From an uncultured Bifidobacterium sp. (GTDB lineage Bacteria > Verrucomicrobiota > Verrucomicrobiia > Limisphaerales > JADLHS01): a stretch of 64,000 nt of DNA. Both the position numbers and the translations under genes were made by a program. Of this stretch, positions 28,001 through 29,061 are shown in pieces (position 1 is the stretch's first letter; each line of letters opens with the position of its first letter). The stretch is from positions 33,172 through 97,171 of the forward strand of contig CAZIJO010000001.1 of the NCBI GenBank assembly GCA_964539515.1, written 5' to 3'. The notes beneath the pieces were generated by a model. That model did no database searches. It saw only the letters and a list, made by a program, of their open reading frames with translations, and was not told where the DNA came from.

Positions 28001-28594
28001 GAGGAGTCTCTAGCTGGTGGTGACGACATTGCCGATGTTATCGGGTTCAGTCGCGGAGCGGCGATGGCGCGTGATTTTGTTAATCAGCTAAATAGGAAGT
28101 ATCCTTGTGTCAAAGTGCGCTGGCTGGGCTTATTCGATACTGTTGGTTCTTTCGGCATCGGAGGCAATGACGCGGATATAGGCTATGAACTCGGTATTCC
28201 AAGTAATGTGGAACGTGCTTTTCACATGGTCGCTGGTGACGAATCACGCTACTTCTTTCCACTTGCCTCCATATGGAGGGGACCTCACGCAAGGCCCAGT
28301 AATCGGAATTACCAAGAAATCACTCTCCGGGGTGCACATTCAGATATAGGCGGCGGTTACCGAGATCATCGCGGGTTAGCCAACGCCGCGCTGCAGAGGA
28401 TGCACAAAGATGGCATGTTTCATAAAGTTCCGTTTGGCCCTGTACCGGAAGCGTATCTAAATACAAAGGACGAAGTGATTCACGATTCTCGGTGGCTAAA
28501 CGACAAGGCTGGGCCTATTATTAACATTCCATTGTGGGGTATGGCACCAAATCCATTTTGGAGTGCCGAACGAACAGTCTATTATCATCCATGA
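22010..28594 (+). CDS. RHS/YD-repeat polymorphic toxin with C-terminal Tle1/DUF2235-like lipase domain
   Basis: Signal-like [18 protein letters not shown]. Dozens of YD repeats ([38 protein letters not shown]...). RHS core end [24 protein letters not shown]...[13 protein letters not shown]. The tip has [27 protein letters not shown]. Start is GTG 22010 or ATG 22025. Confidence 0.93.
   Translation: [2194 protein letters not shown]
27767..28591 (+). other. C-terminal toxin module of the RHS protein (alpha/beta-hydrolase, Tle1/DUF2235-like)
   Basis: Begins immediately after [11 protein letters not shown]. Motif order is FDGTNN ... GFSRGA (GxSxG) ... LFDTVGS ... HSDIGGGY. Hand-counted GC is 54/120 (45%) for 27781-27900, against 40/60 (67%) for 26041-26100. 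Confidence 0.8.
28580..28594. repeat. 15-bp direct repeat, copy 1 (TATTATCATCCATGA) at the RHS stop
   Basis: Exact match to 29047-29061. Contains the last codons YYHP and the stop of the RHS gene. Confidence 0.9.
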
Positions 28595-28595
28595 G

Positions 28596-28835
28596 CGTAC
28601 GAATCTCAGTCTTACGGTTTGGTGCAGCCTCAACGATGCGGACAGCTACCTGCGCTACTGCGAGGAGGGACTGGAATTGGAGAGCGGAATGTTCAACTAC
28701 TTCGTCCGTTACAATGTGTAGCGACCGCATCAGGCTTTGGGCTACAGGACGTTCCGGGAGATGTATCGCCTCCCCGAATCGCACGGTGACAAGCCGGCAA
28801 AGTGGGAGTCGAAATCGGACCGCCTGCTGCGGTAG
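28596..28835 (+). pseudogene. Remnant of the C-terminus of an integrase-core (rve/DDE) transposase, with an internal stop
   Basis: One frame reads ...LNDADSYLRYCEEGLELESGMFNYFVRYNV*RPHQALGYRTFREMYRLPESHG... (TAG at 28719-28721). (Y/F)xxxYN..RPHxALGYxT is the conserved tail of IS3/IS481-type transposases. No upstream catalytic region is present. Confidence 0.6.
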
Positions 28836-29046
28836 GATGACGGCGACTAAGGATGACGGGAAAGAGGCGGCTCGCGAATTGCGTCGCCTTCTCTTTTCAA
28901 ATTGGTTATGTGCGCCCAGCAGACAACTGCTATTAACCAACGCTACAGGCTCAAGGAATCAGGCCTTATTTTCTGCTGTCAGCGTTTTGAATATGGGTCA
29001 ACCTCACAGAAGCACATTTTTGAACCGACACGCTGATCGAAGGAAT

Positions 29047-29061
29047 TATTATCATCCATGA
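29047..29061. repeat. 15-bp direct repeat, copy 2 (TATTATCATCCATGA) at the start of the candidate immunity gene
   Basis: Exact match to 28580-28594. The ATG of the 29058 ORF lies inside it. Confidence 0.9.

Follow-up and report, generated by a model that had tools for sequence, protein, structure and literature searches.

A probable rearrangement scar joining pieces of two related Tle1-like toxin/immunity cassettes across a dead IS3-family element

A model of C-terminal displacement for Rhs proteins was reportedly put forward by Jackson et al. in 2009. Orphan modules of Rhs and CDI loci can be disrupted by IS elements, and orphan immunity genes in them have been found to be co-transcribed and functional (Poole et al., 2011, PMC3150448). 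Effector displacement retains the old immunity gene together with a shifted effector 3′ end, and it proceeds via homology-facilitated illegitimate recombination (Kirchberger et al., 2017, PMC5361080). The locus described here lies in a 64-kb stretch of DNA, which was analyzed as a whole and is called the window below; the bacterium was taken to be planctomycete-like (Pirellulales-related). The analysis also brought out a family of small lipoprotein immunity proteins that had no name before. Five members turned up among 5.8 billion proteins, and a conserved ATGA overlap ties them to Tle1-like toxins. By analogy with the systems just named, its gene order matches the known pattern of effector displacement and orphan immunity. 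The locus is very probably a rearrangement scar, in which pieces of two related toxin/immunity cassettes are joined across a dead IS3-family element. A scar of this kind is ordinary for a bacterial toxin locus.

The toxin gene and the genes that follow it

The features of the locus, all on the plus strand, are as follows.

22010..28594, +, rhs, intact gene for a polymorphic toxin of 2194 aa with RHS/YD repeats (Pfam RHS_repeat, E 3.7e-26)
27767..28594, +, toxin 1, C-terminal Tle1-like (DUF2235) predicted phospholipase domain (Pfam T6SS_Tle1-like_cat, E 3.3e-26)
28580..28594, +, junction copy J1 (TATTATCATCCATGA), end of toxin 1 (YYHP, stop), overlapped by the ATG at 28591
28591..28613, +, imm 1, 5′ stub left from an immunity gene otherwise lost (MSVRISV...), cut after ~7 codons, matching the L002 immunity start
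28591..29061, +, open chimeric "bridge" frame of 156 codons, opening with the J1 ATG, which overlaps the stop of toxin 1, and closing with the J2 TGA, which overlaps the start of imm 2
28614..29006, +, IS3-family 3′ remnant, last 393 nt of a ~1.46-kb element, equivalent to 1068-1463 in a relative of 1463 bp
28617..28814, +, OrfB (rve/rve_3) pseudogene, the ~66 C-terminal codons past the catalytic E, interrupted in frame by a TAG (28719-28721)
28994..29006, +, IS right terminal inverted repeat TGGGTCAACCTCA, ending ...CA, where homology to the L006 and L010 IS stops
29007..29061, +, toxin 2, decayed 3′ stub (...ADRRNYYHP, stop), interrupted by the IS at a point 51 nt ahead of the immunity ATG and shared with L001
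29047..29061, +, junction copy J2 (TATTATCATCCATGA), in which the toxin-2 stop overlaps the imm-2 start
29058..29426, +, imm 2, complete immunity gene, 122-aa predicted lipoprotein (signal peptide ...LFAAGC), with homologs P0001-P0004

The rhs gene has the make-up of an RHS polymorphic toxin: a long repeat core, a DPxGL-like core-end motif at 27734-27766 (aa 1909-1919) and, after it, a variable C-terminal toxin, here the Tle1-like domain. Toxin 1 scores 92.7 bits against PF09994, for which the cut-off is 27. Its GFSRG, FDTV and HSDIGGGY motifs are intact and align to the Tle1 chains 6sjl, 9j3f and 4o5p of the PDB. By its domain and its GxSxG serine, Asp and His motifs, toxin 1 is predicted to be a Tle1-like (DUF2235) phospholipase. 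Near 26500 the GC content falls from ~63% to 57%, and the toxin domain itself has ~50%; the window as a whole has 61%. A second copy of the toxin was not found elsewhere in the 64-kb window, nor was another copy of the immunity gene.

The signal-peptide-plus-Cys region of imm 2 matches an NCBIfam lipoprotein model, and no known family could be assigned to the protein. Its AlphaFold model (pLDDT 67) is an all-beta sandwich of 8 strands; searches of the PDB with the fold and with the sequence gave no significant match by either.

Other features nearby were also checked. A Y1-transposase pseudogene had been suspected at 29500-29640 (MARKLSVEFPGAI...) and received no support from Pfam and NCBIfam. 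Between 28300 and 29950 there was no match to Rfam families, and an antisense ORF of 139 aa gave one weak match, to DUF1308 (E 0.006, 17 bits versus a cut-off of 26.9 bits).

The junction repeat and the IS3-family remnant

The direct repeat TATTATCATCCATGA was first noticed in a sequence-only reading of this DNA, which placed its copies at 28580-28594 and 29047-29061. Both are exactly there, and no third copy is present in the 64-kb window even at two or fewer mismatches. Two matches were reached in none of 100 dinucleotide shuffles. J1 does contain the last codons of the RHS gene, YYHP and the stop of the 2194-aa ORF, and the ATG in J2 does open the 122-aa lipoprotein ORF. The spacer between the copies is 452 bp (28595-29046), which places the junctions 467 bp apart. 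The 15-mer is the core of an imperfect repeat of 38 nt (28565-28602 versus 29032-29069, 74% identity).

Intact cassettes were compared in five contigs, L002-L005 and one JGI contig, which among them encode three distinct immunity proteins. The immunity gene overlaps the Tle1-like toxin gene by a 4-nt ATGA in all five, which is the uninterrupted junction that had been expected of relatives. In L002-L004 this toxin-stop/immunity-start junction is the identical 15-mer, present once in each; in L005 it is conserved at the protein level (YYHP, stop, Met). Judged from these alignments, the 15-mer is the conserved toxin/immunity junction of the family and not a target duplication of an IS. Because it is a conserved coding junction, its single copy in relatives is no argument for a duplication event.

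By the ISfinder definition, elements of the IS3 family have OrfA and OrfB with a -1 frameshift, a DDE rve transposase, TG...CA terminal repeats and target duplications of 3-4 bp. The full-length relative of the remnant, a 1463-bp element in L010, encodes an HTH_Tnp_1 OrfA and an rve OrfB with an A8G slippery run. Its terminal repeats, TGAACTGGATCCC / GGGGTCTAGTTCA, are of the TG...CA type, and it is flanked by a 3-bp duplication, AAC. The remnant has 77% DNA identity to this element over 391 nt, and 28615-29006 was matched (E 1e-76) by an nhmmer profile made from three independent IS tails, with the alignment reaching the profile's final node. The right end of the remnant, ...GGGTCAACCTCA, coincides with the end of homology to the copies in L006 and L010, which lie in unrelated contexts. 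It is on three independent IS copies that the bounds 28614-29006 are based.

The remnant is the last 27% of the element. OrfA, the D/D/E catalytic residues and the left end are all missing, which agrees with the earlier description of a tail without a catalytic core. The frame that had drawn attention to a transposase, ...FNYFVRYNV, stop, RPHQALGYRTFREMY..., is present with its TAG. It matches positions 44-66 of 67 in Pfam rve_3 (E 1.6e-4, under the gathering score) and positions 330-367 of 369 in NCBIfam transpos_IS3 (E 7e-4, below the curated cut-off). Tblastn of residues 87-152 of P0008 against the OrfB pseudogene gave 64% identity (E 2e-22), and the assignment to the IS3 family follows from this homology, P0008 itself matching transpos_IS3 with E 3.6e-40. 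There is no further copy of the IS in the 64-kb window, either as insert DNA or as transposase protein. Like IS3 elements, the remnant keeps C-terminal codons of OrfB and a right terminal repeat ending in CA; unlike an intact IS3 element, it has lost the left end, offers no target duplication for comparison and would be without transposase activity.

The sequence-only reading had offered as its first alternative that an IS landed precisely on the ATGA junction, duplicated 15 bp of target and decayed to 452 bp. This would explain an exact 15-bp direct repeat around DNA with a transposase tail, and removal of one copy and the spacer does restore the ATGA overlap known from relatives. The ends of the element, however, are in the wrong places. 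The right end, at 29006, lies 40 nt inside the spacer, short of J2, and is followed by toxin-derived sequence; the left end is missing, and J1 is trailed by the 5′ stub of an immunity gene instead of an IS end. Direct repeats thus do not abut both IS termini. Moreover, the L010 relative duplicates 3 bp, the 15-mer is native to the junctions of L002-L004, and the imperfect extension of the repeat to 38 nt is unexpected for a target duplication. That the repeat arose in this way is scarcely credible. For annotation the locus counsels caution: an exact direct repeat around an IS fragment is not necessarily a target duplication, and here it would be a gene junction in two paralogous pieces.

Origin of the two cassette pieces

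As its second alternative the sequence-only reading had proposed that cassette exchange left a recombination scar, and the evidence agrees with this. Both copies have a diverged stub of the partner gene beside them. The BLAST alignment of toxin 1 with L002 continues past the stop to 28609, and in the 15 nt past the ATGA the imm-1 stub matches the L002 immunity start at 11 positions, compared with 7 of 15 for imm 2. On the other side, the 40 nt before J2 (29007-29046) align to the 3′ end of the L002 toxin with a shuffle p of 0.008, versus 0.27 for toxin 1. Outside the 15-mer, 22 of 41 alignment columns of the toxin-2 stub are identical to L002, and within it 15 of 15. The stubs are only 15-40 nt long, and allelic assignment depends on few positions. 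It is because J1 is trailed by an immunity 5′ stub and J2 preceded by a toxin 3′ stub, each nearer to L002 than to its counterpart in the window, that the locus is read as two cassettes.

The first copy would then comprise the full-length rhs, the complete toxin 1 and ~7 codons of its immunity gene, and the second the last ~17 codons of toxin 2 and the complete orphan immunity gene, imm 2. The IS presumably entered toxin 2 at a site 51 nt ahead of the imm-2 ATG, and it probably did so before the L001 lineage split off. At 28609-28614, the left joint would be an illegitimate junction inside the IS. It may have formed by deletion within a tandem array (rhs-toxin1-imm1 ... toxin2::IS-imm2), or the resident toxin may have been replaced when an rhs-3′/toxin-1 segment came in by homology-facilitated illegitimate recombination; the present data would suit either route and do not distinguish them.

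Further support comes from L001, an uncultured Pirellulales MAG, in which the same toxin-2 stub and immunity gene (94% aa identity to imm 2) are preceded by a Tox-HDC toxin, a DUF7919 gene and a spacer. The same immunity module is found, therefore, behind different toxins in the window and in L001. Homology between the two begins at 29003. The IS tail gave no nhmmer match in L001, where resemblance to the IS end is confined to the final 20 nt (15/20), so that an insertion ancestral to both lineages is presumed. The window and L001 differ at 10 of 55 sites in the toxin-2 stub versus 15 of 369 in the immunity gene (96% DNA identity), and pN/pS for imm 2 is ~0.25. These comparisons show imm 2 to be under apparent purifying selection, with the toxin-2 stub evolving an estimated ~4 times faster. 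A scan of the genome collection with the immunity alignment gave only L001, and no sister genome in the pre-rearrangement state was found in it. Look-ups of the exact imm-2 protein and of a 52-aa ORF were likewise empty.

Imm 2 has the position of an orphan: no full-length cognate toxin is directly upstream, and a 51-nt toxin stub precedes its ATG. The full-length toxin 1 sits 467 bp away behind the IS remnant, without the adjacency or overlap of a cognate pair. That orphan arrays exist in this cassette family is indicated by L002-L004, which have an rhs-core fragment past the immunity gene.

Toxin and immunity amino acid identities are 78 and 60% to the L002 pair and 70 and 55% to the L005 pair, with 73 and 55% between L002 and L005. 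The divergence of toxin 1 and imm 2 from these pairs is in the proportion expected of cognate partners; hence the two cassette copies would be close relatives, and a more local origin is possible. At its simplest, ~70 bp at the junction of one cassette might have been duplicated, for example during IS insertion or repair, and then have diverged in place, with no second cassette involved. The cognate-like divergence fits such an event, as does the ~50% GC of both toxin 1 and imm 2. The two copies, however, are ~45-50% identical outside the 15-mer, yet the immunity gene has kept 96% DNA identity to that of L001. Both stubs are also nearer to the L002 cassette than to their own in-window counterparts, and the J2 stub and immunity gene occur in L001 without toxin 1. 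A local duplication of this kind is very unlikely.

Instead of being a simple holdover from the ancestral sequence, the identity of the 15-mers may reflect gene conversion between the two junctions, which would maintain or renew it, or selection acting on the translation-initiation region of imm 2. J2 is identical to J1 and L002 throughout the 15-mer, and the rest of the stub is far less conserved; L001 has three changes in its 15-mer; and a promoter-like CCGACA-16-TATTAT takes its -10 element from the 15-mer. On the other hand, the three changes in L001 are adjacent and may represent a single event. The polarised changes in the stub (2 in the window, 6 in L001, 2 ambiguous) have no significant asymmetry, and promoter-like sites are at shuffle expectation (2 found, one of them the weak site with this TATTAT, versus 1.5 expected). 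For RecA-dependent conversion 15 bp is short. Conversion or selection on the 15-mer is unlikely.

Expression of imm 2 and the bridge frame

The sequence-only reading stated that toxin and immunity gene are no longer coupled, which is correct in the physical sense, given the 467 bp between the junctions. Since the immunity gene of toxin 1 itself is truncated, protection from this toxin would now depend on imm 2, a same-family immunity protein. Expression of imm 2 may come by read-through from rhs, from weak signals of its own, or from both; no plus-strand terminator was predicted in the J1-J2 spacer.

The bridge frame runs from the imm-1 stub through the IS tail, which it reads in the +1 frame, into the toxin-2 stub. 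It has no stops, compared with 3-10 in each of the five other frames, and P(open) was 0.0027 in dinucleotide shuffles. In the IS tail of L011 this +1 frame is also free of stops, and in that of L006 it has one. Since related tails are open or nearly so in this frame, the shuffle P overstates the case, and a rough, post hoc estimate of the chance probability is ~3-6%. As a product of selection the frame is a hint only. No Pfam family was found for the bridge ORF.

A translational relay could be envisaged, in which ribosomes that have completed the toxin restart at the J1 ATGA, make a meaningless chimeric peptide across the IS scar, stop at the J2 ATGA and restart there on imm 2. It is a doubtful proposal. 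If true, toxin-immunity coupling would outlast an interruption of 467 bp, and only frame-keeping rearrangements would survive in a cell newly without the toxin's own immunity gene. Slippage between the 15-mers could also, now and then, bring back a direct fusion of toxin 1 to imm 2.

Comparison with displacement loci and Tle1/Tli1 pairs

The nearest parallels are the Rhs/CDI displacement loci and their orphan modules (PMC3150448). As in these, a full-length rhs carries a polymorphic C-terminal toxin of low GC, with remnants of an older cassette downstream and a retained orphan immunity gene under apparent purifying selection. IS interruption and the presence of the same orphan module behind different main toxins across genomes are also shared. 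The orphan described here differs in that it keeps ~17 toxin codons and no piece of the rhs core. In addition, the immunity gene of the main toxin has been cut to ~7 codons, leaving the orphan as the sole same-family immunity gene, and the host, taken to be a Pirellulales-like planctomycete, has no T6SS genes in the 64-kb window.

Displacement in Vibrio cholerae T6SS loci (PMC5361080) likewise has a homology joint on one side and an illegitimate one on the other, and it keeps the ancestral immunity gene and an effector 3′ end. Unlike the Vibrio arrays, this locus has its joint inside an IS remnant, both of its cassettes belong to the same family, and it has no multi-immunity array.

With the Tle1/Tli1 pairs (PDB 4o5p, 6sjl) it shares a DUF2235 domain with Ser-Asp-His motifs and a small, predicted exported lipoprotein partner encoded immediately downstream. 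In contrast to those pairs, the toxin here is attached to an Rhs cage and is not free T6SS cargo, and no known immunity protein was found to resemble imm 2 in sequence or fold. Taken together, these likenesses suggest that the dynamics of displacement, orphan immunity and IS scars known from proteobacterial Rhs, CDI and T6SS loci also act on the Rhs-Tle1-like toxin of this presumed planctomycete lineage.

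Toxin, immunity gene and their conserved junction

The large ORF at 22010-28594 (2194 aa) encodes an Rhs/YD-repeat protein (RHS_repeat, E 3.7e-26) with the Rhs core-end motif at residues 1909-1919. Its last 275 residues are predicted to form a Tle1-like (DUF2235) phospholipase domain (PF09994, 92.7 bits), referred to here as toxin 1; the motifs GFSRG, FDTV and HSDIGGGY are intact and align with those of the Tle1 structures 6sjl, 9j3f and 4o5p. The GC content is ~63% in the rhs core, falls to ~57% at 26500 and is down to ~50% across the toxin domain and the small ORF that follows. 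A drop of this sort is usual for exchangeable Rhs tips. Within the rhs gene (26400-27750) the steps run from about 64% to 57% near 26500 and to 48-50% near 27650; the first precedes the core-end motif, and the segment exchanged most recently may have its left border there. An ORF of 1007 aa without a Pfam family (18987-22010), whose last base is the first base of the RHS ORF, may belong to the Rhs system or encode a partner of it. No type VI secretion system genes were found in the 64-kb window.

The small ORF (29058-29426) encodes a predicted lipoprotein of 122 aa, MNIRHLIVLAMLFAAGC..., designated imm 2. Sequence searches gave it neither a Pfam family nor a PDB relative, and a structural search with its modest, all-beta predicted model returned no matches. 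Only four relatives were found among 5.8 billion proteins, P0001 with 94% identity and P0002-P0004 with 58-61%. The proposal that the two genes descend from an ATGA stop/start arrangement is supported by these relatives: the genes for P0002, P0003 and P0004 directly overlap the upstream gene by 4 nt in every contig carrying them. That upstream gene encodes a Tle1-like toxin, with RHS repeats visible in contig L005. Because this synteny is conserved, the lipoprotein is the predicted immunity partner of this type of toxin. Toxin and immunity identities scale together (78 and 60% for the window and L002, 70 and 55% for the window and L005, 73 and 55% for L002 and L005), so imm 2 stands at the distance from the partners of the related toxins that is expected of a cognate immunity protein. 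Cross-protection against toxin 1 by imm 2 is plausible.

As described in the sequence-only reading, the 15-mer TATTATCATCCATGA occurs exactly at 28580-28594, where it encodes YYHP and the stop of the RHS ORF, and at 29047-29061, where its internal ATG starts the lipoprotein ORF. No third copy exists in the window even when two mismatches are allowed, and 0 of 100 dinucleotide shuffles contained two matches. A repeat search showed the 15-mer to be the exact core of an imperfect 38-nt repeat (28565-28602 and 29032-29069, 74% identity). The junction is identical in the intact cassettes of L002-L004, and in L005 it is TACTACCATCCATGA, in which the changes are synonymous and YYHP* is kept; judged from these relatives, therefore, the 15-mer is the conserved stop/start junction of the toxin/immunity family. 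Its presence at the end of the toxin gene and at the start of the immunity gene is expected, and the separation of the two halves is the thing to be explained.

Anatomy of the spacer

Segments of the 452-bp spacer between the two junction copies
28595-28613, + strand: putative 5′ stub of a lost immunity gene (imm 1), ~7 codons (MSVRISV)
28614-29006, + strand: 3′ remnant of an IS3-family element, by homology to foreign IS copies
29007-29046, + strand: putative 3′ stub of a second toxin copy (toxin 2), truncated by the IS 51 nt upstream of the immunity ATG

Of the 15 nt past the first ATGA, 11 agree with the start of the L002 immunity gene and 7 with that of imm 2, and the BLAST alignment with L002 continues past the toxin stop to 28609. 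This segment is read as what is left of imm 1. The 40 nt upstream of the second junction align to the 3′ end of the L002 toxin (shuffle p 0.008), with no significant alignment to the window's own toxin end (p 0.27). The toxin frame there reads ...ADRRNYYHP*, compared with ...AKRRIYYHP* in L002, and the segment is best read as a decayed stub of toxin 2. A purely local duplication followed by divergence is an unlikely source of the two junctions: their flanks are ~45-50% alike, whereas at the DNA level the neighboring immunity gene and that of contig L001 share 96% identity, and each stub is nearer L002 than its counterpart in the window.

Between the stubs, the frame ...FNYFVRYNV*RPHQALGYRTFREMY... 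aligns to the final third of Pfam rve_3 (E 1.6e-4, short of the gathering score). At the DNA level this segment shares 77% identity over 391 nt with the 3′ end of an element in contig L010; its identity to the solitary remnants in L006-L008 is 75-78%. An nhmmer profile made solely from three foreign copies hits 28615-29006 (E 1e-76), ending on the final profile node, and homology in unrelated contexts terminates at the same ...GGGTCAACCTCA. The L010 element, 1463 bp long, has terminal repeats TGAACTGGATCCC / GGGGTCTAGTTCA, a 3-bp AAC duplication, an HTH_Tnp_1 OrfA, an A8G slippery run and an rve/rve_3 OrfB, a fragment of which (P0008) matches the NCBIfam model transpos_IS3 (E 3.6e-40) better than IS481 (E 1.7e-16). 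By homology to it, the window retains IS positions 1068-1463, past the catalytic glutamate, with the right terminal repeat; the transposase remnant first noticed in the insert is thus an IS3-family 3′ end. The suggestion that the IS produced the 15-bp repeats as a long target duplication is refuted. Neither repeat abuts an IS end, the family makes 3-bp duplications, and the repeat is a conserved coding junction that runs on imperfectly on both sides into homologous, diverged gene stubs.

Solitary 3′ remnants of this IS, ~350-450 nt long, were seen in L006 (6009-6372), L007, L008, L011 (2027-2469) and L012-L014, in two unrelated housekeeping contexts (aminotransferase/GATase; isochorismatase/LigD). 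In both they begin at nearly the same IS coordinate, ~1018-1022 of 1463, not far from 1068, where that of the window begins. The 120 best protein matches to the OrfB tail are all fragments (≤160 aa). This pattern may reflect assembly breaks in repeats or a preferred breakpoint. Within the window's IS tail, the 10-nt direct repeat AGGATGACGG is present in two copies 16 nt apart (28834-28859); L010 has one similar copy, and the window probably underwent a small local duplication.

The orphan module and its possible coupling to the toxin

Window positions 29003-29465, from the toxin stub through the immunity gene to 39 nt past its end, are common to L001 (GCA_964538425.1, uncultured Pirellulales bacterium) with 94% identity. 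Upstream in L001 are a different polymorphic toxin (PT-TG/Tox-HDC) and a DUF7919 gene. Since the stub and imm 2 stand behind different toxins in different genomes, they are by definition, as far as sequence can tell, an orphan immunity module. The two copies differ at 10 of 55 sites in the stub and 15 of 369 in the immunity gene (pN/pS ~0.25), and the stub appears to drift while the immunity gene appears to be maintained. The nhmmer profile found no IS tail in L001. Of the 20 nt adjoining its stub, 15 agree with the IS terminus, and these 20 nt bear no resemblance to toxin sequence. This hints, but does not prove, that toxin 2 had already received the IS before the window and L001 lineages split.

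In L001 (1-1206) the DUF7919 gene follows the Tox-HDC toxin tail by 30 nt, a pairing which suggests that DUF7919 is an immunity protein for Tox-HDC toxins. Beyond imm 2 in the window, 29427-29891 contains the frames MARKLSVEFPGAI... and ...RRELI..GKRFLD..., which we take to resemble the N-terminus of IS200-like/REP-associated Y1 transposases, elements common in Planctomycetes. These frames had no match in Pfam or NCBIfam. The region shares short repeats with 31519-31555 (37 nt, 86%) and 37257-37316 (61 nt, 75%).

The immunity gene has been uncoupled from the toxin, as was claimed, in the physical sense. No plus-strand terminator is predicted between the two genes, promoter-like sites occur there at chance frequency, and an Rfam search of the locus gave no family matches. 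The ATG of the first junction opens a 156-codon frame that ends exactly at the TGA of the second, so that one ORF joins both ATGA overlaps. The other five frames have 3-10 stops each, and the frame stayed open in 0.27% of dinucleotide shuffles. In the same +1 frame the IS tail has no stop in L011, one in L006 and three in L010, so the element itself accounts in part for the openness. A post hoc estimate that includes the two frame coincidences puts the probability of chance at a few percent. The frame might act as a translational relay, which is offered as a hypothesis and not as a finding. This +1 frame, counted relative to OrfB, is open or nearly open through the non-coding tail of several IS copies, for no obvious reason.

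Origin of the rearrangement

At the locus the junction occurs in two diverged copies, the right end of the IS3-family 3′ remnant adjoins the toxin stub, the left joint is illegitimate and falls within the IS, and the orphan module is common to the window and L001. The other alternative in the sequence-only reading, a recombination scar, fits the evidence. The first step would have been insertion of the IS3-family element into toxin 2. A deletion could then have begun at ~codon 8 of imm 1 and extended, through whatever DNA lay between and most of toxin 2, to nt 1067 of the IS. Alternatively, an incoming rhs-3′/toxin-1 segment may have displaced the resident toxin, joined at one end through homology in the rhs core and at the other illegitimately, within the IS.

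An orphan rhs fragment 77-84% identical to the window rhs core (26798-26952) lies 3′ of the intact cassette in L002 (1333-1487), L003 (838-992) and L004 (703-806); with such fragments after the immunity gene, the cassette family forms orphan arrays. In L005 a minus-strand gene (2150-3265) for a 371-aa rve-family transposase is convergent to the cassette, ~490 bp past the immunity gene. Together, these rhs-core fragments and the transposase show the same dynamics in this family.

Effector displacement in which the ancestral immunity gene survives together with a shifted effector 3′ end has been described (PMC5361080), as have orphan modules interrupted by IS elements and orphan immunity genes that are co-transcribed and functional (PMC3150448). 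By analogy, both routes match the published behavior of such loci. The scar left by rearrangement of this polymorphic toxin locus is real and well resolved. It is of an ordinary kind, and its novelty is confined to the instance, a planctomycete host and an unnamed immunity family.
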